64,000 nt of DNA. Origin: Vairimorpha necatrix (taxonomy: Eukaryota). The stretch spans positions 558,001-622,000 of the forward strand of contig CP142736.1 of the NCBI GenBank assembly GCA_036630325.1, written 5' to 3'. The position numbers and the translations under genes are program-made. The notes below the pieces were generated by a model. That model saw nothing but the letters and a program-made list of their open reading frames with translations. It did no database searches and had not been told where the DNA came from. This document shows, piece by piece, positions 30,313 through 62,615 of the stretch. Positions within the stretch are counted from its first letter, which is position 1. Each line of letters begins with the position of its first letter.

Positions 30313-30500
30313 AAAAAAAATAAATAAAAAAATAAATAAAAAAATAAATAAAAAAATAAAAAAATAAAAAAATAAAAAAATAAAAAAAAAAAAAAAAAAA
30401 AAAAAAAATAAAAAAATAAAAAAAAAAAAAAAAAAATAAATAAATAAAAATTAAATAAAAATAAATCAAAAAAAAATATTAATAATAATAAAAAAAAATT
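30313..30500. repeat. A-rich low-complexity tract in the MULE 2 subterminal region
   Basis: Runs of (aaaaaat)n and poly-A. Confidence 0.85.
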
Positions 30501-39859: not shown

Positions 39860-42800
39860 TGGAGCTTTGTATATTAGGTTGGTGTCTATATACTATATAA
39901 AAAAATAACCCTTTTGCTTGTTAACTCTTTCAACGTGGCAGCTGGTGCGGAACTGAAAATGAAAGGATTAACATTCAGAATTTTTAAGGCCAAGGCAGAC
40001 TTGGAATATTTGGAGTTACAGTTCAACCCCCATAACATTATCCAAGACAAGGCGAAGATATCAATTTTCCGGCGCTTCTCCGTTTTGCTGCCCCATTTTC
40101 TTGGGGGCAGCAAAACGGAGAAAAGCAAAAATTAATAATTTTTATTTTTTTTTAAAAAAAGCCCCAAAAATGACAAAAAGAAACTTTTATAATTTTTGAC
40201 ATCCTTTGTTTTCCAGTCTTGCCTCATGTAAAGACTACATGATAGAGACTGGAATTATTAATTTGATTAGACGAAGTGGTTCTTGTGATCATGTTGTTGC
40301 AAAGCTTACAATATTATTGGAAAGGGGAAAGGAAAGTTTAGTTTATAGGTGTATGAGACAACAATGCAGGGCAAAAAAAACAGCTTTTTACCTGGCATTA
40401 AATTATCATTTGAAATTTATCTTTTTGTTGTGTTCTTGGTCCTTTGTAACAGCAATTATAGATTTATTAAATGTTTAACGTGTGTGTCAAATGACACTAT
40501 TTTAAAAATAAAGCTTAAATTGAGGGAATATATTAGAAAGAAATTGGAAACCGATTGCAAAATCGGTGGATCGGGATTATAAGTTCAAGTTGATGAAACT
40601 GTACTGTGTAGAAGAGGAACTATTAGAGTTCCATCTAGAGCAGATGATGGAATTAAATATACTGTATGGATTTTGGAGTTAATAGAAGCTGTAGATAGAA
40701 AAAAATTTTGTATAGTACAAGTTCCGGATCGAAAGATAAATACTTTAACAAAGATAATAGGAGATATAGTCTTACCGGGATCAGTTCTTATTTCGGATGG
40801 CCATTCTAGTTATCCCGGTGTAGCAGCTAATCTAAAACTCAAACACATCATTGTAAATTATTCAATAGGATTTACTAATGAAGAAGGTTTTCATACTAAT
40901 AATATTGAGAATTTTTCGTCTGGTATGAAATCTGAAATGACTAAACAGCACGGAGTAAAACGTGTGAATATCGAATCTTGGCTCGAAGAATTTACTTTTA
41001 GAAAAAAAATTTTAAATAACGTATTCAAGAATGAGGAAATGGATGTTCTAATTGATTTTGTAAAATATATTTTTTTTTATTTTTGCTGCCCCATTTTTTT
41101 AGGGCAGCAAAACGGAGAAGCACCAATTTTCCTTATGATTTTTGAGAGGGAGGCCCAAATTCTACTTACACAAATAGAAAAATCTATAAATGTAATATGA
41201 AGCAACTAAAAGGGGAATTGAAAAAAATGACAGAAAAAATACACTTTTTAAATTACTAGAAGCTAGACAAAATTTAAATGAACCAGTGAGAGAATGACTA
41301 GCAAGAGTTATAACTATTGCTTATGATTCGGGCATTAGGAAGAAATCGCCAATTAAATACTTTTAAGGACATTTTATTATAGAAGGATTTGTAACATTTA
41401 GAAGCTACTTTTTCAACCAGTATCTATTCGAGGATTACTTAAATAAGATAGAATTATTAAGGAGGAGAGAATACTTAATGCAAAATTTAAAAATAAAAAA
41501 TCCATAGGGTTAGCATTAAGCAAAAAAGAATCAACAAATATGTTCCGGAAGAGAACAAAATATGTACTTAAAAATTATAATTAACAATCTACAAACACCA
41601 TTAGGAGAAGTCAAGACAACGGTAGTATGTATTGCGGGCGATAAAATATATGCAGTAGTAGATATTAGAAGTATTTGTAATTTAATTAGTTGGAAGCTGG
41701 TAGAAGAAAAGAGATTTCTTAACAACAAAATAAAAGTGACTACTAAAACTAATATCTTTGAACAAGAAAACACTTTAACAGAGTACGTAGAAATAACTGC
41801 ACCTTATATAACATCCAAATAACGACCAACTTCAACATTATGACCAATAATCAGTTCATCTTTTGATTGAACCCCTAAATTATGTAAATTAAAAAAATTG
41901 AGACATGAGATAGGTGAACTTGAGAAGAAGGGTTGTAAAGTATTTAAAGTAAACCATCAGAAGGTTCTAATAAACAATAAGGCACAATAAATACAAAAGA
42001 AGCAACCTGAGTCAATGTTAAAAAAATAAATATATCAAATGGGGCATAAAAGGTAACTGAAAAGCAATAACAAAGCTATTAAATTCAAGTTATATAAAAA
42101 GACAACCTAGCCATGATACAATCATGCCCCCAGTAAAAACCCCCCGATGAAAATATAGAATATCTGTTACAACAGATGGTTAAATAAAATCGTAGAGGAC
42201 AATAATTACTCGGTCCCAAAAATAAATGAAACTATCGATATGACACAGAGCAAAAAGATTTTCACAGTATTAAACCTAACGGATAAAATTTTTCCAAATT
42301 AAAATTGATCCTAAGGATAAATTTAAAACATCCCTTTATTTAAGAACAATTTGTATCAAAGTACTAAAATGCCATAAGGTTTTAAGAATTTACCTGCAAT
42401 TTTTCATAAGATAATGGACAACATCTTATGCGATATCATGAAAACTAAATTAAAGGCCTATATAGACGGCATAATTGTATATGGCGATTCCGAAAAAGAG
42501 CTGATCAGAGCTTTTTTGAAGTTCTTCAATAAGTTATAGAAAAAAAATGCTTTTTAAAAGTACAAAAAAAAACTTTTGCCATCTAAGATCAACGAGTCAA
42601 CTCAAAGACCAAAAAGAGAACATCAGAGTAAGATTTTAAATTTAAAAGAACCAAAAATAAGAAACCCCTACAAAAAAACTACGATTTGCTAATTACTATA
42701 AAAAATATATCGCACGGCTAGCAACAATTTCGCGACCATTATATGATGCACTTGATGGTCTTTAAAACAAAGATTAATTTTAAAGGAATGAAGAATGTGA

Positions 42801-50538: not shown

Positions 50539-51785
50539 CACCAGGTTGATTCTGCCTGACGTAGACGCTATTCCCTAAGATTAACCCATGCATGTTTTTG
50601 ATATGGAAAAATGGACTGCTTAGTAATACTCACTTTATTTAATGTATTAAATTAGTATAACTGCGTTAAAGTGTAGCATAAGACATATACAGTAAGAGTG
50701 AGACCTATCAGCTAGTTGTTAAGGTAATGGCTTAACAAGGCAATGACGGGTAACGGTATTACTTTGTAATATTCCGGAGAAGGAGCCTGAGAGACGGCTA
50801 CTAAGTCTAAGGATTGCAGCAGGGGCGAAACTTGACCTATGGATTTTATCTGAGGCAGTTATGGGAAGTAATATTCTATTGTTTCATATTGTAAAAGTAT
50901 ATGAGGTGATTAATTGGAGGGCAAATCAAGTGCCAGCAGCCGCGGTAATACTTGTTCCAAGAGTGTGTATGATGATTGATGCAGTTAAAAAGTCCGTAGT
51001 TTATATTTAAGAAGCAATATGAGGTGTACTGTATAGTTGGGAGAGAGATGAAATGTGACGACCCTGACTGGACGAACAGAAGCGAAAGCTGTACACTTGT
51101 ATGTATTTTTTGAACAAGGACGTAAGCTGGAGGAGCGAAGATGATTAGATACCATTGTAGTTCCAGCAGTAAACTATGCCGACGATGTGATATGATATTA
51201 ATTGTATTAGATGATAGAAATTTGAGTTTTTTGGCTCTGGGGATAGTATGATCGCAAGATTGAAAATTAAAGAAATTGACGGAAGAATACCACAAGGAGT
51301 GGATTGTGCGGCTTAATTTGACTCAACGCGAGGTAACTTACCAATATTTTATTATTCAGAGAAGATTTTTAATCTGAGAATGATAATAGTGGTGCATGGC
51401 CGTTTTCAATGGATGCTGTGAAGTTTTGATTAATTTCAACAAGACGTGAGACCCTTTTATTAATAGACAGACACAATCAGTGTAGGAAGGAAAGGATTAA
51501 AACAGGTCCGTTATGCCCTCAGACATTTTGGGCTGCACGCGCAATACAATAGATATATAATCTTTATGGGATAATATTTTGTAAGAGATATTTGAACTTG
51601 GAATTGCTAGTAAATTTTATTAAATAAGTAGAATTGAATGTGTCCCTGTTCTTTGTACACACCGCCCGTCGCTATCTAAGATGATATGTGTTGTGAAATT
51701 AGTGAAAACTACTTGAACAATATGTATTAGATCTGATATAAGTCGTAACATGGTTGCTGTTGGAGAACCATTAGCAGGATCATAA
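50539..51785 (+). rRNA. Microsporidian SSU (16S-like) rRNA
   Basis: caccaggttgattctgcctgac start, gtgccagcagccgcggtaa, gtacacaccgcccgtc, aagtcgtaaca; reduced length of about 1.25 kb. Confidence 0.98.
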
Positions 51786-51820
51786 TAAGTTAAATTTAAA
51801 TTAATTTTAATTATTAAATT
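51786..51820 (+). other. Very short AT-rich ITS
   Basis: About 35 nt between SSU end and LSU start; limits approximate. Confidence 0.75.
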
Positions 51821-53415
51821 TACCCACACATGGGATCAATAGGATACCATAACGATGAAGGTCGTAATAGAATACGAAAGTATATTATTTACCTAATTAA
51901 TATATTTATAATGTATTGATAACCCTTTGAACTTAAGCATATCATTAAAAGGAGGAAAAGAAACTAACTAGGATTTCTTTAGTAGCAGCGAGTGAACAAG
52001 AAATAACCCTCCATTGTAATCCTTAATTGGAGTTGTAAATGGTTTATTCTATTAATTATATTTATAGAGAATATTAAATTCGTTATTAATAGAATAGAAT
52101 AATGTACTTGAGTAGAGCTGCTTGGTAGTGCAGTTTGAATAAAGGTAGAATGAAATATCTAAGGTTAAATATAATGGTATACCGATAGAAAATAAGTACT
52201 GCGAAGGAACTTGTGAAAATGTGTGGAGTTTAGCCTTATTTTTAAGGACCCGTCTTGAAACACGGACCAAGGAGATTATAATTATAGCAAGATAAAAATT
52301 AAATTTTTTAATCTTTATTAACTTGATTAGTTATAATTATAAGACCCGAAACACAGTGAACTATACATGTTCTGGTTGAAGATAAGCAACAGTTTATTGG
52401 AAGACCATAATCATTCTGACGTGCAAATCGATGATTTAAGATGTGTATAGTGGCGAAAGACCAATCGAACTGTGTGGTAGCTGGTTCACAGCGAAATGTC
52501 TCTCAGGACAGCAGTTATTATTATATAGGACATAGATGTAGGACACTGTTATAGTTTTTTTACTATGAGAAATCTTTAATTCTATGGAATTATATAAATT
52601 AAATTTATATAATGAATCTATTGTATAACTAGTGGGCACATGATTGTAAGAATGATGTGCAAAAAGGGATGAACCTTATGAAACATTAAATATTCTAAAT
52701 AGTAGATATTATACCATAAATATGATGAATACATTGAGACAGTAGGGCGGTTGTTATGGAAGTAGAAATCCGCTAAGAAACGTGTTACAACGTACCTACC
52801 GAATGTATTATTGTATAAAATGGAAGAAGATTACTACTTTTATGAGATGTTTCTAATAAATATTTAGGTAGCTGTGCAATTTGTTTGTATTGAAGTATAT
52901 ATGTGAGTATATATAGAAGAAACAAATGAGCCGATCTTGGAGGCAGTAACAATATATTTGTATAGATATAGACTAGGGTTTTCAATTATTATTGAAGTGA
53001 ATCGGTGTTATTTATAAAAACAAAAAAGATTAATAATTCTTTATTAAATTATTATAAGGTAACTTGATAATGACAGTATATTTTAATAAATTTAAGATAA
53101 ATGAATTAAATTTTATTTTAACTATGGATTGTCATGATAAGAAATAGTTAATTATATATACTTGATAAAAATAAAATAATTTTAACCGTACCTATACCGC
53201 ATCAGGTGTCTTTGTATCATAACAAATATTTTAAATTAAAGTAAGTAAGGGAATTCGGCAAATTAGATCTGTAACTTTGGGATAAAGATTGGCTCTAGCA
53301 TGCTAGAACTTTTACTATGTAAGGAATCTGACTGTTTATTAAAAACATAGCTTTTTGTATTTACAAGAAGTGAATTCTGCCCAGTGCATTTATTGTTAAA
53401 GTTGTGTAAGCGAAT

Positions 53416-53468
<53 letters not shown>

Positions 53469-53567
53469 TTAATTGGTGACGCGCATGAATGGAGCAACGA
53501 GATTCCTACTGTCCCTACTTACAATTTTGTGAAACCACGAGACAAGGGAACGGGCTTGTTATTTATC

Positions 53568-53599
<32 letters not shown>

Positions 53600-54034
53600 T
53601 TAGTATGTTTTAATAAATATTCGGTATATTGTAGAGAGGTGGGAGAAGTATTGTGAAACCACTAGTATGTTTGAATATTTATTTATTAGAATATATGGGG
53701 AGTTTGGCTGGGGCGGTACAGCTGTTAAAAAGTAACACAGCTGTCCTAAGGTAGATGAATGATGGATGGTAACCATCAGTTTATTATAAGGGAATAAATC
53801 TGCTTTACTTTATGCATATGACTGTATTTAGTAGGGAAACCTTGGCCTAGCGATCCCAATTACATTCATTATGTATTGGGTGATTGAAAAGTTACCACAG
53901 GGATAACTGGCTTGTAGCAGGCAAGCGATCATAGCGACTCTGCTTTTTGATTCTTCGATGTCGTCTCTTCTGATCATCGTAGTGTATATGTTACGAAGTG
54001 TTGGATTGTTCACCCGGTAATGAGGAACGTGAGA

Positions 54035-54076
<42 letters not shown>

Positions 54077-54300
54077 TAAGTATTTTTGAGTGAACTTTGA
54101 TAGTACGAGAGGAACTCTAAGTGATGACCACTGGTAGTGCGATTAACTATTAAGTTATGTTGCTTAGCTACGTCGTTTCGATTAAGGCTGAAAGCCTCTT
54201 AAGCCTGAAGCGTAGCTCAAAGATATATTTAGGAGAATACTACTCTTTTAAGCAGAACTGTAAGAATGAAGGTGTATGCCGACATTTTGAGGTTACTGCT
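51821..54300 (+). rRNA. LSU rRNA with 5.8S-equivalent fused at its 5' end
   Basis: aacgatgaag (5.8S motif), gaacttaagcatatca, gacccgtcttgaaacacggacc, taactatgactctcttaaggtagccaaa, SRL agtacgagaggaac; ends approximate. Confidence 0.97.
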
Positions 54301-54597
54301 TTTTTTGTATGTATAGTAGGTGTTGTGTTGTATTGAGAGCGTACTTGATGTGGAGGGTGGGACTGATGTTTTTTAACTAGGTGCAGATCTCTAAGTCTTA
54401 CCAACCTTCGGCTGCTGGTTGGTAAGTAGGGTCAGCTATACTCTAGGGGTGGGAGACCCATTGCTGGTATGAAGAACACCGTTAACTTTCGAGTAATTCT
54501 TCATATTTTTAACCTGGGAGAGGTTGGGCATGATACTGAAGCTGTATTGTTCCGCTGAACTGAGTCGTGTTCTTAAATGGTGTATTGAACCAGGCGT

Positions 54598-54666
54598 ACC
54601 CTCCATAAGAGAGCGTCCACGTCGCGGAGGGTGGGACCGATGTTTTTTAACTAGGTGCAGATCTCT
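54598..54666 (+). ncRNA. HDV/CPEB3-like self-cleaving ribozyme (predicted)
   Basis: P1 accctcc/ggagggt, P2 agaga/tctct, P3 gcg/cgc, L3 tccacgt, P1.1 cc/gg, P4 acc..ggt, J4/2 gCaga (C54658). Confidence 0.85.
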
Positions 54667-55118
54667 AAGTCTTACCAACCTTCGGCTGCTGGTTGGTAAG
54701 TAGGGTCAGCTATACTCTAGGGGTGGGAGACCCATTGCTGGTGAGAAGGACACCGTTAACTTTCGAGTAATTCTTCATATTTTTAACCTGGGAGAGGTTG
54801 GGCATGATACTGAAGCTGTATTGTTCCGCTGAACTGAGTCGTGTTCTTAAATGGTGTATTGAACCAGGCGTTGTGTTTTCGTCAGGTCCGCGAAATATGT
54901 AGTCAGAGATGACTAAGGATCTGTTACCTACGGGAACAAATTTTTCTCCTACAAGCGAGGCCGTTGAGGTATGCTGGCGTGTAACCGCAATTATTGATGT
55001 TTTTCTGGTTGGTGGAGTTTTTGGTGGCTTGGTGGCTTTTCTTCGTTTTGCTGATTCTGTCTTTTTTACAATAAACAATTTCAATTTTATTTTTTAATTT
55101 TATTTTATTTTTTTTTTT
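54598..55118 (+). mobile_element. Ribozyme-headed SINE/SIDE-like element, copy 1
   Basis: Defined 5' end at the ribozyme, LINE-like 3' end, T-rich tail, flanked by a 102-bp repeat (54496-54597 / 55119-55220). Confidence 0.78.
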
Positions 55119-55221
55119 ATTCTTCATATTTTAAACCTGGGAGAGGTTGGACATGATACTGAAGCTGTATTGTTCCGCTGAACTGAGTCGTGTTCTTAAA
55201 TGGTGTATTGAACCAGGCGTT

Positions 55222-55290
55222 ACCCTCCATAAGAGAGCGTCCACGTCGCGGAGGGTGGGACCGATGTTTTTTAACTAGGTGCAGATCTCT
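55222..55290 (+). ncRNA. HDV/CPEB3-like ribozyme, second copy (predicted)
   Basis: Identical to 54598-54666; candidate catalytic C at 55282. Confidence 0.85.
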
Positions 55291-55721
55291 AAGTCTTACC
55301 AACCTTCGGCTGCTGGTTGGTAAGTAGGGTCAGCTATACTCTAGGGGTGGGAGACCCATTGCTGGTGAGAAGAACACCGTTAACTTTCGAGTAATTCTTC
55401 ATATTTTTAACCTGGGAGAGGTTGGGCATGATACTGAAGCTGTATTGTTCCGCTGAACTGAGTCGTGTTCTTAAATGGTGTATTGAACCAGGCGTTGTGT
55501 TTTCGTCAGGTCCGCGAAATATGTAGTCAGAGATGACTAAGGATCTGTTACCTACGGGAACAAATTTTTCTCCTACAAGCGAGGCCGTTGAGGTATGCTG
55601 GCGTGTAATCGCAATTATTGATGTTTTTCTGGTTGGTGGAGTTTTTGGTGGCTTGGTGGCTTTTCTTCGTTTTGCTGATTCTGTCTTTTTTACAATAAAC
55701 AATTTTATTTTTTTTTTTTTT
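55222..55721 (+). mobile_element. Ribozyme-headed SINE/SIDE-like element, copy 2
   Basis: Same 5' end as copy 1; 15-bp TSD attgaaccaggcgtt (55207-55221 / 55722-55736). Confidence 0.8.
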
Positions 55722-56099
55722 ATTGAACCAGGCGTTGTGTTTTCGTCAGGTCCGCGAAATATGTAGTCAGAGATGACTAAGGATCTGTTACCTACGGGAA
55801 CAAATTTTTCTTTACAAGCGAGGCCGTTGAGGTATGCTGGCGTGTAATCGCAATTATTGATGTTTTTCTGGTTGGTGGAGTTTTTGGTGGCTTGGTGGCT
55901 TTTCTTCGTTTTGCTGATTCTGTCTGTCAGGGGACAAGCCCAGGTGCATACTGAGACTTGCCCTGCCCAAGGAATGAATTGTGTTTTGACAGGGCTTTGG
56001 AGAGACCAACACATTAATTGAGAAATGACAGGGAAATATGAATGTGGTCCTCAGCAATAGCATATTCAAAAAGAATACCAATGAGTTATAGAAACAATA

Positions 56100-57794
56100 A
56101 TGAAGGGTAAAGCGCAACAAACCAGGAGCAAGCTCAGTAGAGCAAAAAGTGACCACTTTGGTGGTCCAAACAACAATTTAAATACAGAAATGTATTTAAA
56201 ACAACAAACTAAGCATGTATATGCTAATAAAAGTTTCCCAAGTGTTACTTTCAAAAATGATGGAGAAATGAAATATTTTCTCAAGAAAATCAAAATTCTT
56301 TCAGAAAGAATTAATAAAAACGATATTTTTGACACGTCAAAAAAAGAAAATAACAAAGATCTTCTTGATATTAAAAGATACATATCTAGCACTACTGAAT
56401 TAGTATTGATTCAGCAGACATATTTGGAGCTCTTCCATGATAAGCTAGAAAAACAAAATATCAAATTAAAAAATTTGAAAAAAAATAATCTGATGGATGA
56501 CAGTAATCAAATTACAGAATCAACAAAAAATAAAATTGAGATGATGATAGAGAATCACTCAAAAGAATGTGTAGAACAAAAGGATAATAACTCCGATGTT
56601 CCAAATGATACCAGTAGCGAAACCCTTCAGTTAGCTACTGGAAACAATGATATTTCTAAATTAGAAATCATCAATGAAGATGTTTTAATTAATGTCAAAA
56701 ATCTCCCATCTGCTGTCATAAATCTCGACACTGCTGTCAAAGTAGAAGAACAAGATAAATTGTCAGAAGATGGCAAAAGAAAATGTATAGATGTTTCAAA
56801 GGCATCTACAGATATTATAATTAATAAAAATATTAAACCAAAAGATGGTAAGCTAGATATAGCTTCCATTAACAAAAAAGCAGTAGTTAGACATCTGTCA
56901 ACTATCTCTGCTATTATAGCTGGTAAAAGAAAAGCTCCTAAGAATGGAGTCAAGCTTTTCCATATAAACGAAGACGGATGGACATCTGTCAAACACACAT
57001 TCAAGCCTAAAGTCCAGATAGACTTGAAGAAAAACAGAAGTGGTAAAACCACAGATAAAACCAACTTTAATAGATTTAAATCACTTAAAGTAGAAACTAG
57101 TGGCAATGTAAAAGTGCCTAAAAAGATTAATCATGAAGCTGTAAAGAGAAAAGATATCATTCCTAAAAGAGATCATGAAAAAAGAAGATTACTAAATCAG
57201 AAAATAAATTTTACAAAAAAAACGAAGGACAGAAAAAATGAGAAATGTCAACAAAAAAGAAGGCCAGTTTTACCAAAGAAAAACTGGGCCAAAGAGCTAA
57301 CTGAAGAAGCTCTTATGAAAATTATAAAGGATGGTAGAATTATTTCCAAATGTAAGTTTAGGCTAGCTCTTGCTTCTGGACTCGGATTGAAAGGGAAACC
57401 TCAATCTAGAGACGCTTGGGCAGCCTTAGCTGATGTGGAAAATAAAGATATACCACTTATAAAACAATTTAAAGACTCGGAAGTAGTACTTCTGATGATT
57501 AGAGAACACGTGTGCCAAAAGGTACTAAGCAAGATTAAAGAAAAGTTCGGAGGTTCTAATATCTGCGATGAAGTTAATTTCTTCATCGACTTTTTGTCTT
57601 TAACAAAAACAACTGTTCTAGGAGAGCTGCAAAGACTCTCTGGAACGCATAAAAATTTTGTACCGCTTGTAAAAGCATGTTGGTACATAACTAAAGAATT
57701 AAATAAAGAAAAGCCAAACCATGGTTCTTTCATTTATTTAGAAAATATGATGGGTGAGCCTGCCCGAGAATCTAAGGACTTTAACAATGAATAA
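56100..57794 (+). CDS. LINE ORF1 protein (basic, probable N-terminal coiled coil)
   Basis: 564-aa open frame before ORF2; paralog at 62618; no CCHC knuckle seen. Confidence 0.8.
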   Translation: MKGKAQQTRSKLSRAKSDHFGGPNNNLNTEMYLKQQTKHVYANKSFPSVTFKNDGEMKYFLKKIKILSERINKNDIFDTSKKENNKDLLDIKRYISSTTELVLIQQTYLELFHDKLEKQNIKLKNLKKNNLMDDSNQITESTKNKIEMMIENHSKECVEQKDNNSDVPNDTSSETLQLATGNNDISKLEIINEDVLINVKNLPSAVINLDTAVKVEEQDKLSEDGKRKCIDVSKASTDIIINKNIKPKDGKLDIASINKKAVVRHLSTISAIIAGKRKAPKNGVKLFHINEDGWTSVKHTFKPKVQIDLKKNRSGKTTDKTNFNRFKSLKVETSGNVKVPKKINHEAVKRKDIIPKRDHEKRRLLNQKINFTKKTKDRKNEKCQQKRRPVLPKKNWAKELTEEALMKIIKDGRIISKCKFRLALASGLGLKGKPQSRDAWAALADVENKDIPLIKQFKDSEVVLLMIREHVCQKVLSKIKEKFGGSNICDEVNFFIDFLSLTKTTVLGELQRLSGTHKNFVPLVKACWYITKELNKEKPNHGSFIYLENMMGEPARESKDFNNE

Positions 57795-60700
57795 AGTATC
57801 TTTGTTAAAGTCCTGTTATTATAGGAAATTATTTTCCTATAACAAGAGTGATATTTTCAAATCTCTAAATAAAAAAACGCATAATCCAATTGGATTTACT
57901 CAGATTAAAAATACTTTCCAAACGACAACGAGATTGAATAGTCTCAAATATTTTTCTATTAGAAAGAATATGTGGTGGAAGAAAGTACAAGAACAATATT
58001 GTATTGTCAAGATACAAAGAATTCCTTATGGAGTGAAAGATCTCCTCAAAGACTTATGTAAGAAGAACTCTCTTTTGGAGAATTCCATTATTACAGCAAG
58101 AAAGTATAGACGAAGAGACACGTCTTTTACAAAAATAATAGTTGAAAAACTATACGCAAATTTATTGATTAAGACAGTTAAAGCTAAAGGCTTTAAAGTT
58201 TTAAATGATAATAGAAAAAAACTAGAGAAATCTAGTAAAGTAAATAAAAAGACCAAAGAGAACATAAAACTCTTAAGTCTAAACATTAACCATCTCTCTA
58301 ACAAGAGAGAAGAACTCGAGTGGCTTCTAAAGAAGGAGGAACCAGAAATTATGTGTTTACAGGAAACTTGGAGACAATCTACAAGACCTTTAAAACTTGA
58401 AAAATACACTACAGTTGAAACACTTAGTAGTGGAAAAAATAAACCAGGATTAATAACTCTGGTTAGAAATAATGGAGCGATCAGATGTTCCAAAAAAGGA
58501 ACCGACTCAAACATTCTGCAAACTGTAGTTGAGTTTAGTTCAGCAGGCAAATGGATTAAGTATTTAGTCTTAAATGTCTACATACCACAAAACAAGGATC
58601 TCAAAAGGGAGACCTTGGCCAGATTATTTTCTCTTTTAGAAAAAGAGAATTTCAGAAATAACTATAGTGAGATCATAGTGATGGGAGATATGAATATGCA
58701 GAGTTCTAGTCTCAAGAAAAAACTAAAGGTAGTTGGTTTGCCAGTTACAATAAAATATAACAGCAACGATGGTACAAGGATTCTCAAAGATGGTAAAAGA
58801 TCTAAGAGAAAAATTGATACCATCTTTCGACTAAAAAGTAATGATAATGAGAAGATCATTATATCCAAGTCTTGGGTATTAAGTGATCACTTAGTGCTCA
58901 AAAGAAATATTAAACTTACTGTTGATAAGATCTCAGATCAACTAGTTTATGATAAGAAGATGCTGGAAAATCCAAAAGTGATTAAAAAGCTTAAAAAGAA
59001 GTTGTGTAATCAACAATTAAACATGAATAATCTTCCTGAGATTATTCAAAAAGTTTGTACATCTTTGAAGATTTACAAAAAGAGAGGAGGCCATACTGGA
59101 CTTACAATGAGATGGAGATATTTAAAAGTCTTCAAAGAAAAACGTCTAGCAGCAAGAGCTGTTATGAAAAATTATAATGAAATCAACTCAATTAGATTCG
59201 AATATCTCAAAAAGAGAGTAGACGAAACTAAAAAGTTGATTCGCAAAGATAGATCGAAACTTTGGGCTTTAAGAGGAATAAAGCTCTTTAAAAGTAACAG
59301 ATCCCGAGAATTCTGGCAATGGCTGAAAAATAGAAGTGTCTCCATTCGTTTGGATCAAGTGGCTCTAATTGACCACAATAAGATTCTTCAGACTTGCCGA
59401 GCAAAGAAGCTAGAAATAGCGAATAAATTTTACGCTGATTTGGCGTCAGAGAATGATATAGATGTCAATGTCTATGATAAAGTAGATCTTGTTGATCTTC
59501 CCCCAGAGATAACAGATGAAGAATTTCTATCCGCACTGAAGAAATGTGGAAATAACAAAGCAGCCGGTCCTGATGAGATTCCAACCGAGCTATACAAACA
59601 CTTACTGACTAGAGCAGTAGAAGATAAATTCTTTAAATTCATGCTACATGAATTTAATAAATATATTTGTGGAAATAGTCCTCCTGAATACTGGAGCATG
59701 GCAAACATGATTTGCCTTCACAAAAAAGGAGATGAGACAGATCTGAATAATTATAGGGGAATCTCCTTAATTAACACAATTAGTAAGATCTATCTCAAGA
59801 TAATAAATGACAGGTTAACTCAATTTGTCGAAGAACAAGATATACTCTCTAGATACCAAGCAGGATTCCGAGCAGGTGAAGAGTGTATGAATCAGATTAC
59901 ATCTCTACTAGAAATAGTGAGAAGAAGAGAATTCAGAGGCCTGAACACAATAATGTGTTTCATTGACTTTGAAAAAGCTTATGATAATGTAAGTCATGAC
60001 TTATTATTTGAGAAGCTTACAAAACTTAATATCCCATTGTATTTAATCAATACAATAAAGGGTATTTATAAATATACCACCATGCGTGTGAAAATTGGTG
60101 GTGACACGTCAAGTGGCTATAGCTACAGAAAAGGAGTGAGACAAGGGTGCCCTTGTTCTCCAATGCTGTTCAATATATTCATCAATGATACTTTTGACGG
60201 CATAGAAGGAGTTTTGATCCCAAGATCAAATACGAGAGTTCCGGGACTGATGTTCGCAGATGATATTGTTGTCTTCGGAAACAACATTGATGATCTTAAT
60301 AATAAGATCAATAGAATTTCTAATTGGGCGGTTAATAACAGAATGAGGATTAACTGCACAAAAAGCGGAATATTAGAATGGGCTGCTCATTCTAAAATAC
60401 AAGAATTCCGAAGTTTGTATTCTCTCAGTACAGACTTTGGTGTGATTGAGGAAGTCACTGAATACAGATATCTAGGTGTCTTAATTAAAAGAAACACGCT
60501 AGAAGAACACTTGGTCAAAGACGCAGCAATGCGTGGCAAGAAAGCCTTGGACGCCTTGATGCCCAAGTTGATGAATAATAGCATCAACCTTTACTTCAAG
60601 GCGATCTTAATCAAATGTGTACTAGTACCCACACTAATGTATGGTAGTGAACTGTGGGGAATGTCAAGTACAAGAGCAGGTAAGATTAACAGGATCTTAA

Positions 60701-61479
60701 GAAAATCTATCAGAATGATATTCAAAAGAGTATTAGTTCCACTAGATAGAGTAATGGACGAGTTCAGTATCGAACGAATTCATATACAAGCAGCTTTAAG
60801 TAGATTTAGAGCATACAACAAGTGGAAACACAATAAGACAATCATATCGGATATAATTGCAATAAATCCGAAAGAAAGAAAAACTACCTGGTGTTCAAGA
60901 ACACAAAGATGGTTAAAACGATTTGTCGGCAACGAATACGAATCAAGTGATAGTAAATTTATCACTTCAAAAATAATTGATGTACTAAGAAGTCGAAGAA
61001 CTCTAAATACTTCCTTAGCTGCATCAATAGCAAACCAATATGACATAAGAAATTCACAAATAAAATATGTCATGAACAAAATAAATAATAGAAAAATTAG
61101 AACATATACTAGATTGAGATGTAATCTAGTAAAGTGGTCCTCAGCAATAGCATATTCAAAAAGAATACCAATGAGTTATAGAAACGAATGCTTTTTGTGT
61201 GATGGACCACAAGAAAATTTAGAACACTTTCTGCTGGAGTGCGTCTGTTTAACTGACATTAGATCATCTTTTGAAAATAAACTGCCTCTACTGACTTGTT
61301 CAAAAACAAATATCCGAGATAAAACCAAGCAACTCCTTGGTAATAAAATCGGACTAAAAAATAACCCAGATAAGATAAAAGAACTTTGTTGCACTATAGA
61401 GTTCTTAGATAGAATGGTTGTCTCTAGAAGAATTATGATTAATAACAAACTGAAGGAGATAACGAAACAAAATAATTAA
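57787..61479 (+). CDS. LINE ORF2: APE endonuclease, reverse transcriptase, C-terminal CCHC
   Basis: LSLNIN, CLQET, GDMN, SDH; AGPDEIP, NYRGISL, QAGFR, FIDFEKAYD, GVRQG, FADD; CFLC..EHFLLEC. Confidence 0.96.
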   Translation: MNKVSLLKSCYYRKLFSYNKSDIFKSLNKKTHNPIGFTQIKNTFQTTTRLNSLKYFSIRKNMWWKKVQEQYCIVKIQRIPYGVKDLLKDLCKKNSLLENSIITARKYRRRDTSFTKIIVEKLYANLLIKTVKAKGFKVLNDNRKKLEKSSKVNKKTKENIKLLSLNINHLSNKREELEWLLKKEEPEIMCLQETWRQSTRPLKLEKYTTVETLSSGKNKPGLITLVRNNGAIRCSKKGTDSNILQTVVEFSSAGKWIKYLVLNVYIPQNKDLKRETLARLFSLLEKENFRNNYSEIIVMGDMNMQSSSLKKKLKVVGLPVTIKYNSNDGTRILKDGKRSKRKIDTIFRLKSNDNEKIIISKSWVLSDHLVLKRNIKLTVDKISDQLVYDKKMLENPKVIKKLKKKLCNQQLNMNNLPEIIQKVCTSLKIYKKRGGHTGLTMRWRYLKVFKEKRLAARAVMKNYNEINSIRFEYLKKRVDETKKLIRKDRSKLWALRGIKLFKSNRSREFWQWLKNRSVSIRLDQVALIDHNKILQTCRAKKLEIANKFYADLASENDIDVNVYDKVDLVDLPPEITDEEFLSALKKCGNNKAAGPDEIPTELYKHLLTRAVEDKFFKFMLHEFNKYICGNSPPEYWSMANMICLHKKGDETDLNNYRGISLINTISKIYLKIINDRLTQFVEEQDILSRYQAGFRAGEECMNQITSLLEIVRRREFRGLNTIMCFIDFEKAYDNVSHDLLFEKLTKLNIPLYLINTIKGIYKYTTMRVKIGGDTSSGYSYRKGVRQGCPCSPMLFNIFINDTFDGIEGVLIPRSNTRVPGLMFADDIVVFGNNIDDLNNKINRISNWAVNNRMRINCTKSGILEWAAHSKIQEFRSLYSLSTDFGVIEEVTEYRYLGVLIKRNTLEEHLVKDAAMRGKKALDALMPKLMNNSINLYFKAILIKCVLVPTLMYGSELWGMSSTRAGKINRILRKSIRMIFKRVLVPLDRVMDEFSIERIHIQAALSRFRAYNKWKHNKTIISDIIAINPKERKTTWCSRTQRWLKRFVGNEYESSDSKFITSKIIDVLRSRRTLNTSLAASIANQYDIRNSQIKYVMNKINNRKIRTYTRLRCNLVKWSSAIAYSKRIPMSYRNECFLCDGPQENLEHFLLECVCLTDIRSSFENKLPLLTCSKTNIRDKTKQLLGNKIGLKNNPDKIKELCCTIEFLDRMVVSRRIMINNKLKEITKQNN

Positions 61480-61886
61480 TATAGCTTAATTAAAAAAAAT
61501 GAAAATCTAGAATTAGAAGAAAGAAGTGTTATATTATTAACAAAAAGACTTATATTTAATTATATTTGACCTGGGAGAGGTCGGGCATGATACTGATGCT
61601 GTATTGTTCCGCTGAACTGAGTCGTGTTCTTAAATGGTGTATTGAGCCAGGCGTTTTCGTTTTTCATTAGACCCGTGAAAATGGGTCTCTAGTCATATTA
61701 TGACTAAGGATGTGTCCTATGGGAACAAACTTTTCTCCTACAAGCGAGGCCGTTAAGGTATGCTGGCGTGTAAACGCAATTATTGATGATTTTTTCTTTA
61801 TTAGTGGAGTTTTTGGTGGCTTGGAGGCTTTTCTTCGTTTTGCTGATTCTGTCTTTTTTACAATAAACAATTTTATTTTATTTTTT

Positions 61887-62600
61887 ATGAGTTATAGAAA
61901 CGAATGCTTTTTGTGTGATGGACCACAAGAAAATTTAGAACACTTTCTGCTGGAGTGCGTCTGTTTAACTGACATTAGATCATCTTTTGAAAATAAACTG
62001 CCTCTACTGACTTGTTCAAAAACAAATATCCGAGATAAAACCAAGCAACTCCTTGGTAATAAAATCGGACTAAAAAATAACCCAGATAAGATAAAAGAAC
62101 TTTGTTGCACTATAGAGTTCTTAGATAGAATGGTTGTCTCTAGAAGAATTATGATTAATAACAAACTGAAGGAGATAACGAAACAAAATAATTAATATAG
62201 CTTAATTAAAAAAAATGAAAATCTAGAATTAGAAGAAAGAAGTGTTATATTATTAACAAAAAGACTTATATTTAATTATATTTGACCTGGGAGAGGTCGG
62301 GCATGATACTGATGCTGTATTGTTCCGCTGAACTGAGTCGTGTTCTTAAATGGTGTATTGAGCCAGGCGTTTTCGTTTTTCATTAGACCCGTGAAAGTGG
62401 GTCTCTAGTCATATTATGACTAAGGATGTGTCCTATGGGAACAAACTTTTCTCCTACAAGCGAGGCCGTTAAGGTATGCTGGCGTGTAAACGCAATTATT
62501 GATGATTTTTTCTTTATTAGTGGAGTTTTTGGTGGCTTGGAGGCTTTTCTTCGTTTTGCTGATTCTGTCTTTTTTACAATAAACAATTTTATTTTTTTTT
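61887..62600 (+). mobile_element. Right part of a 5'-truncated LINE copy (left part 56044-56095) hosting the intact element
   Basis: Near-identical to 61171-61886. Confidence 0.88.
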
Positions 62601-62615
62601 TGTTGCACTATAGAG

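Follow-up and report, generated by a model that had tools for sequence, protein, structure and literature searches.

A candidate self-cleaving ribozyme with a fold of the hepatitis delta virus (HDV) type stands at the head of a short repeated element behind the ribosomal RNA genes of the microsporidian Vairimorpha necatrix. The stretch analyzed, hereafter the window, comprises 64,000 nucleotides (nt) of contig CP142736.1 (assembly GCA_036630325.1, positions 558,001 to 622,000, forward strand) and is numbered from its first base. The element is about 520 nt long, and its 3' part derives from the 3' untranslated region (UTR) of a long interspersed nuclear element (LINE) in the same array. It is probably a non-autonomous, LINE-dependent element, similar to a short interspersed nuclear element (SINE) but without a head derived from an RNA polymerase III (Pol III) gene. 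Its RNA 5' end would be set by the predicted HDV-like self-cleavage, plausibly within read-through transcripts of RNA polymerase I (Pol I). Two full and three partial copies were located in the window by blastn, and the rDNA and element features are as follows.

50539–51785, + strand: small-subunit (SSU) rRNA; SSU_rRNA_microsporidia, 1051.8 bits, reaching the Rfam gathering threshold
51900–54234, + strand: large-subunit (LSU) rRNA; LSU_rRNA_eukarya, 1335 bits, reaching the Rfam gathering threshold
54235–54351, + strand: spacer of 117 nt from the LSU 3' end to the first, 5'-truncated element copy
54352–54597, + strand: partial copy, element positions 29–274, 98.4% identical, in which ribozyme positions 1–28 are missing (window searched with the element by blastn)
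54598–54666, + strand: candidate HDV-like ribozyme of copy 1; predicted cut 5' of A54598, T at −1, candidate catalytic C54658
54598–55118, + strand: full element copy 1, about 520 nt
55119–55221, + strand: partial copy, element positions 173–275, 98.1% identical, behind the T-rich tail of copy 1 and abutting the second ribozyme (blastn)
55222–55290, + strand: candidate HDV-like ribozyme of copy 2
55222–55720, + strand: full element copy 2, its T-rich tail shorter than that of copy 1; positions 1–507, 98.6% identical (blastn)
55721–55925, + strand: third copy, truncated at both ends; element positions 260–465, 98.5% identical over 206 nt
55926–56040: unique stretch of 115 nt between the third element copy and the extra fragment at the 5' end of the LINE

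All element copies share the strand of the rDNA unit (50539–54234), and the region from 54352 to the window end forms a head-to-tail retroelement array on this single strand. The first element copy begins 118 nt past the LSU end and the first intact ribozyme 364 nt past it. The elements thus lie at least 118 nt downstream of the LSU gene rather than at an R2-type fixed site inside it, in agreement with the preliminary description, which had been made from the sequence of the window. A partial copy followed by a full copy constitutes a repeat unit of 624 nt, and the two ribozyme-headed units are 100% identical across 55221–55520 (300 nt). The third element copy ends at position 465 without a tail. 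The 115 nt that follow it have no second copy in the window and no Rfam match above noise.

Fold and anatomy of the element head

The ribozyme segments of the two full copies, 54598–54666 and 55222–55290, are identical (a 41-mer that was tested gave two matches, with none expected). The nested double pseudoknot that had been proposed for the first 69 nt is borne out, with every named motif in place in both copies. P1 consists of seven Watson-Crick pairs between ACCCTCC (54598–54604) and GGAGGGT (54626–54632), the 3' strand of which starts directly after that of P3. The joining segment J1/2 (ATA) leads to P2, comprising five pairs between AGAGA (54608–54612) and TCTCT (54662–54666), and to P3, comprising three pairs between GCG (54613–54615) and CGC (54623–54625). 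Loop L3, TCCACGT (54616–54622), contributes C54617–C54618 to the two pairs of P1.1, their partners being G54633–G54634. The P4 region (54635–54656), a short stem, precedes J4/2, GCAGA (54657–54661), which lies next to the 3' strand of P2 and contains C54658 as the candidate catalytic base. The segments follow the HDV-like order P1–J1/2–P2–P3–L3–P3'–P1'–P1.1–P4–J4/2–P2'. The active-site pattern of the class, U..C.CG in L3, a two-pair P1.1, and a catalytic C with a constrained A in J4/2, is also found. A plain minimum free energy fold yields P1, P3, and P4 unprompted.

The cut site of HDV-like ribozymes is fixed by the P1 strand directly after L3/P3 (PMC3774820). Base −1 of the candidate is U, which is the most active −1 base in the HDV ribozyme (PMC1874588). 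The range described for the ribozymes of R2 elements includes a P1 of 7 bp, a P2 of 5 bp, and a weak P4 (PMC3774820), and the corresponding helices of the candidate, with the same lengths and a weak P4, fall inside it.

Within the element, the ribozyme (positions 1–69) is followed by a 10-bp hairpin (about 74–103), a unique part extending to position 180, the LINE 3' UTR-like part (181–499), and the T-rich tail. Classical SINEs begin with a Pol III gene (tRNA, 7SL, or 5S) that has an internal promoter. In contrast, the head described here is a ribozyme fold containing a run of six T residues (positions 45–50), with no tRNA-like gene; searches for tRNA, 5S, and 7SL matches in it found none (Rfam at E up to 10 in 54200–56200, and a tRNA search). 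The T run and the lack of such matches therefore argue against a Pol III head.

The partner LINE and the shared 3' end

The LINE copies behind the element are arranged as follows.

56098–61887, + strand: partner LINE
56100–57794, + strand: first open reading frame (ORF1) of the LINE
57754–61479, + strand: ORF2 of the LINE; Pfam matches to RVT_1 (E 7.8e-38) and, less strongly and slightly short of the Pfam cut-off, to Exo_endo_phos (E 9.8e-5)
61561–61887, + strand: 3' UTR of the LINE, with the T-rich tail at its end
61887–62601, + strand: 5'-truncated copy of the partner LINE, 99.7% identical, head-to-tail after the tail of the first; its 3' UTR spans 62277–62601
from 62616: second LINE, 87% identical

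The assignment of the partner to the apurinic/apyrimidinic endonuclease (APE) type, made in the preliminary description, is upheld by the two ORF2 domain matches and by relatives of ORF2, which themselves contain PF03372 and PF00078. Among the named relatives, a partial 'LINE-1 reverse transcriptase like protein' of Nosema granulosis ranks first at 51% identity, and up to 60% identity is seen with unnamed proteins. ORF1 has no Pfam match.

Element positions 181–499 are 88.2% identical to 61561–61887 over 330 columns and 87.8% identical to 62277–62601 over 329 columns, with about 95% identity in the first 94 nt of the match. The 3' part had been described as some 340 nt matching the LINE 3' UTR; its derivation from that UTR stands, but the length is about 320–330 nt. 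Element and LINE copies end in the same T-rich tail, giving them a common 3' end. The tails (55066–55118 and 55690–55720 in the element; 61860–61888 and 62576–62601 in the LINE) vary in length, lie on the sense strand, and are not poly(A). The sequence AATAAA occurs just ahead of every one of them, and 61480–61560 lies between the end of ORF2 and the element-matching 3' UTR. Two compensatory pairs emerge from an alignment of both element tails with both LINE UTRs; they fit a conserved RNA structure, weakly, as only two lineages are compared. Newer copies stand directly after older tails, which suggests that the T-rich tail itself is the preferred target.

Element positions 1–180 have no counterpart in the LINE (blastn), and in a scan of the whole window, LINE 5' ends included, the structural descriptor described below detected no further ribozyme. 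A short internally deleted element (SIDE) takes both its 5' and its 3' end from the parent LINE; as the LINE here lacks a ribozyme, the element does not belong to this class. Of the SINE/SIDE-like nature proposed earlier, the SINE-like part therefore remains, through the LINE-derived 3' end, whereas the SIDE part does not. The two LINE 5' ends become homologous only at 56098 and 62616, 2 nt ahead of the ORF1 ATG, so the LINE is almost devoid of a 5' UTR. Both ends are preceded by pieces of the LINE's own ORF2 3' region, with 56041–56098 corresponding to 61131–61189 and 62602–62615 to 61388–61401. These pieces are consistent with footprints of template jumping by the reverse transcriptase at the RNA 5' end, and the same behavior would account for the element-to-element junctions.

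Upstream junctions of the element

The predicted cut had been said to coincide with the 5' junction of the element. In the window, the ribozymes are preceded by element position 274 (54597) and position 275 (55221) rather than by foreign flank, and the two junctions differ by one T. Therefore, the window alone does not show position 1 as a terminus, and this position could be the boundary of an internal duplication. The junctions also imply that at least one copying event probably started from an uncleaved dimer RNA, a point that counts against self-cleavage. The near-identical acceptor could reflect either the copying of such a dimer or a jump onto the 3' end of an upstream cleavage product.

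Contigs of four public DNA runs (X1–X4) were compared with 54540–55080. Coverage in X3 (bat gut) is limited to the LINE-UTR-like part, from 54768 on, and coverage in X4 extends over 54550–54707 and 54845–54996. Among the contig ends listed for X1, X2, and X4, at least five different upstream sequences are joined to element positions 1–3. In an X2 contig, an rDNA spacer motif 16 nt longer than the window's version runs into position 1 with T at −1, and in an X4 contig the same spacer runs into a variant start with a 6-bp P1 that includes one G-U pair. In another X2 contig, position 1 follows position ~330, the two sides overlapping by 3 nt. The X1 contigs join an unrelated 13-mer, followed by G, to position 2, position 415 to position 2, and position 232 plus AA to position 3. 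The G before position 2 is possibly a G1 variant of the ribozyme. The contig flank strings have no meaningful match in the window. The predicted cut thus coincides with the preferred 5' end in the contigs, one position in about 520, which supports the earlier claim in this part, while the element-internal flanks of the window do not. That other copies have the same 5' end, which had been proposed as a genome-wide check, is supported by contigs of public runs, in which the joins fall at positions 1–3. Because the upstream partners differ, no common upstream promoter sets the 5' end. These joins rest on single short contigs of a repeat, with 33 further loose ends besides those listed, and joints with short sides are error-prone.

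Two details of the junctions may be noted. The 13-letter X1 flank at 54599 resembles element positions 58–69 (J4/2 and part of P2') with two changes, followed by G and then position 2, and may belong to a variant ribozyme in tandem that has G at +1 and an altered J4/2. The spacer-proximal copy of the window lacks the 16 nt of spacer and the first 28 nt of the ribozyme that the X2 and X4 contigs have at the same site, either because they were deleted from this strain or rDNA unit or because the assembly collapsed there. A likeness of the spacer motif at 54335–54351 to the P2/P3 region of the ribozyme was dismissed as not homologous, the motif in X2 and X4 running into unrelated sequence before the ribozyme.

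Truncated copies are found as well. In the window and the contigs, 5'-truncated copies directly after T-rich tails start at positions 31, 111, and 173, and a T run followed by position 173 occurs in three X1 contigs, as in the window at 55119. In X1, 701 contigs match the element region at very high summed depth, a depth that in public runs is not readable as copy number, and one flank after the tail in X1 resembles neither the LINE nor the element. The many copies, the 5' truncations, and the differing flanks, both in the window and in the X1 contigs, are those expected of a LINE-dependent element.

These data bear on whether the repeats belong to the host. The ribozyme could be a feature of the rDNA 3' external spacer, acting in pre-rRNA 3' processing or Pol I termination, with sub-repeats that once captured a LINE tail and were then duplicated as DNA. 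The occurrence of a ribozyme-first copy at one and the same spacer position in contigs of X2 and X4, the confinement of the window copies to one array in rDNA orientation, and the 300 nt of complete identity between the two units, which fits unequal crossing-over, would agree with such an origin. However, T-rich tails of differing length stand behind each copy, 5'-truncated copies follow directly behind tails, and the spacer-proximal copy in the window lacks the first 28 nt of the ribozyme. The many junction types among the deeply covered X1 contigs, the post-tail flank that resembles neither LINE nor element, and the same head-to-tail arrays built by the LINE also speak against it, and we regard a host spacer feature as quite improbable.

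The recurrent 274|1 and 275|1 junctions could also be explained by a retrozyme-like circular RNA, in which a 274-nt unit (positions 1–274) is excised by successive ribozymes, circularized, and copied by rolling-circle reverse transcription. The junction is seen twice, and the preceding partial copies differ from the full copies at 2–4 positions. The 5'-OH and 2',3'-cyclic phosphate ends of ribozyme products can be joined by tRNA ligases, which would favor circularization. On the other hand, a unit never contains more than one full ribozyme in the window, position 1 has other junction partners (spacer, position 330, and position 415), and each unit has the LINE tail that a 274-nt circle would lack. 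No hammerhead or other ribozyme ending at 274/275 was detected by Rfam (E up to 10, 54200–56200), and no CUGANGA core was found by eye. A circular intermediate appears highly unlikely.

Significance of the fold, mechanism, and parallels

A structure-only descriptor, which demanded 7 bp in P1, 3 bp in P3, 2 bp in P1.1, 5 bp or more in P2, and one C in J4/2, matches just 54598 and 55222 when both strands (128 kb) are scanned. A stricter motif combined L3 as T[CT]C.CG, two Watson-Crick pairs in P1.1, and C.[AG]A in J4/2 abutting P2'. With these L3 and J4/2 constraints, the full motif is absent from all 1360 shuffles; P3, L3, and P1.1 together occur in 222 of them, and the addition of the 7-bp P1 leaves 7. 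Other matches to a looser descriptor, at 40171 and 16493 (minus strand), were rejected as AT-rich with a 4-bp P2.

Several findings weigh against the ribozyme reading, in addition to the window flanks and the contig basis described above. The structure-only descriptor has 9 matches in 12 dinucleotide shuffles (about 0.75 per shuffled window), and therefore the helices alone prove nothing. The sequence constraints, which follow the HDV/CPEB3 pattern, were set after the candidate had been seen, so that the 0 of 1360 is indicative only. The stability of the 183-nt head is unremarkable (z = −0.83; 39 of 200 shuffles fold as well), and no more than three pairs are clear in P4. At its closing pair, A54598–T54632, P1 is Watson-Crick paired and lacks the G1:U37 wobble that the HDV ribozyme requires, in which a change of either base lowers activity (PMC1874588). 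However, active ribozymes of the L1Tc/SIDER group begin with C1 (PMC4035085), and the wobble is therefore not universal in the HDV-like family.

The Rfam comparison is likewise unfavorable. The CPEB3 ribozyme (RF00622) matches with 13.3 bits against a gathering threshold of 35, locally and over model positions 17–42 of 78. This match, at 54603–54627, covers the top of P1, P3, L3, and P3', with E values of 5.4 when 2 kb are searched and 0.32 when 121 nt are. CPEB3 is the sole family among 4227 Rfam families that touches the 121-nt stretch; the other HDV-class models gave no score at E up to 10, nor with laxer filters on the 121-nt slice. The candidate thus lies below the gathering thresholds of the Rfam HDV class, whose models do not encode pseudoknots and are lineage-specific. 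The descriptor and Rfam checks proposed in the preliminary description therefore gave a divided outcome, favorable in the two unique sites and the sequence-constrained shuffles and unfavorable in the shuffles with structure alone and the Rfam score.

Furthermore, covariation is absent, the two copies being identical and no variant letter reaching 10% in 54598–54666 in the public-run contigs. No relatives were found in three collections (metagenome, genome contigs, and viral contigs). A metagenome scan for the P2/P3/L3 core with a free P1' returned 97 stretches. Of these, the 25 that paired best in P1 and the 10 poorest in G+C were inspected and rejected as GC-rich and unrelated, none having the P1' of the element. 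Two matches (L056) lie inside an unrelated repeat without a P1 partner. An exact 25-mer is absent from the genome-contig and viral-contig collections.

These results leave room for an internal promoter that starts at position 1 and sets the 5' end, the HDV-like fold being an inactive relic or a product of chance in an element that is still LINE-dependent. The A1-U pair in place of the wobble, the sub-threshold Rfam score, the frequency of the helices by chance, and the lack of covariation would all be compatible with it. In L1Tc, moreover, the first 77 nt serve as both promoter and ribozyme (PMC3383444), and a promoter role of the element head is therefore possible. It is nevertheless difficult to reconcile with the absence of the full motif from the 1360 shuffles and with a predicted cut that falls exactly on the preferred 5' end. 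The T6 run, together with the lack of a tRNA-like or other small-RNA match, argues against Pol III, and the varying upstream sequences leave no upstream promoter in common. We consider an internal promoter with an inactive fold unlikely, and self-cleavage the better explanation of the 5' end.

Considering the fold, the junctions, and the shared 3' end, we infer the following route. The element would be co-transcribed within a longer RNA from any upstream promoter, here most simply by transcription that continues beyond the same-strand LSU rRNA gene. The ribozyme would then cut between U(−1) and A(+1), generating an exact RNA 5' end whatever the upstream sequence. The LINE protein would recognize the common 3' UTR and tail in trans and carry out target-primed reverse transcription, mostly at existing T-rich tails, thereby producing head-to-tail arrays. 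At the RNA 5' end, the reverse transcriptase may often jump template, which would create varied upstream junctions with a constant first base.

A more far-reaching version of this scheme is conceivable, although doubtful. A master copy might reside in each rDNA unit of the lineage, always at the same site some 130 nt beyond the LSU 3' end, with Pol I read-through as its sole promoter. The ribozyme would both launch the element and cut the pre-rRNA 3' spacer, perhaps co-opted for rRNA 3'-end formation or termination, and the 274/275|1 junctions would represent jumps onto the upstream cleavage product. If true, the ribozyme head would have come from neither a Pol III gene nor the partner LINE.

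The pairing of a LINE with a short element that has the same 3' tail is known from stringent LINE/SINE pairs such as UnaL2 and UnaSINE1 of the eel. The element resembles these in being chimeric, with a 3' region copied from the LINE 3' UTR and its tail, and presumably in being recognized in trans. It also shares features with R2 elements, in which an HDV-like 5' ribozyme frees the element RNA from the rRNA co-transcript (PMC3774820; PMC3414825). R2 and its SIDEs have the 5' HDV-like ribozyme, and the non-autonomous derivatives use the LINE protein through a common 3' end; in R2, 5' junctions vary where the cut coincides with the first base of the element. In contrast, R2 is a LINE with a restriction-like endonuclease inside the 28S gene, whereas the partner here is an L1-like LINE with APE and reverse transcriptase domains and no ribozyme, and the site lies after the LSU. 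R2 SIDEs are internal deletions that keep the R2 ribozyme, whereas the head found here is unrelated to the LINE.

The trypanosomatid systems L1Tc/NARTc, ingi/RIME, and SIDER are APE-type LINEs with short partners headed by an HDV-like ribozyme (PMC4035085; PMC3185411; PMC3383444). L1Tc/SIDER ribozymes, too, have a base other than G at +1 (C1) but cleave nonetheless, and SIDER2 elements bear two ribozyme signatures (PMC4035085). The ribozyme of that family, Pr77, is common to the LINE and its short partners, whereas here it belongs to the short element only, in a microsporidian and linked to rDNA. The element would thus work like R2 with its SIDEs and like L1Tc with NARTc/SIDER, and is a member of neither group. 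With the CPEB3 ribozyme, the P3–L3–P3' core differs from the Rfam consensus at 1 of 13 bases. That ribozyme, however, is intronic, single-copy, and mammalian, and the match is only local. The similarity of the R2 and HDV ribozymes has been argued to reflect convergence on a constrained active site (PMC3774820), and by analogy the CPEB3-like core may have the same origin.

Ribozyme-defined 5' ends are already known for several LINE families and their deletion derivatives. What is new is a ribozyme apparently joined to a foreign LINE tail, giving a SINE-like parasite without a Pol III promoter; if confirmed, this would be a third way of building a SINE head. The literature search revealed no report of self-cleaving ribozymes, HDV-like or other, in microsporidia, in line with the preliminary description, whose author was not aware of the arrangement having been described there, and the element would then contain the first candidate of this kind that we found reported for the group. 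The excerpts of a review of transposons in rDNA list only the miniature inverted-repeat transposable elements of Nosema bombycis for microsporidian rDNA (PMC10946416). Little is known of RNA processing and transposon biology in the highly reduced parasites that make up the Microsporidia, and the site after the LSU makes Pol I read-through and 3' spacer processing directly testable in them.

Two minor observations concern other parts of the window and the opposite strand. Antisense open frames of 124 aa (54710–55084) and 226 aa (55334–56014) run through the element copies on the minus strand (table 11, alternative starts) and are probably spurious. A T/A-rich, short-period tandem repeat at 30319–30456 (− strand) shows 84–89% identity to the element tail (blastn) and may be another target-like tract or mere simple sequence.

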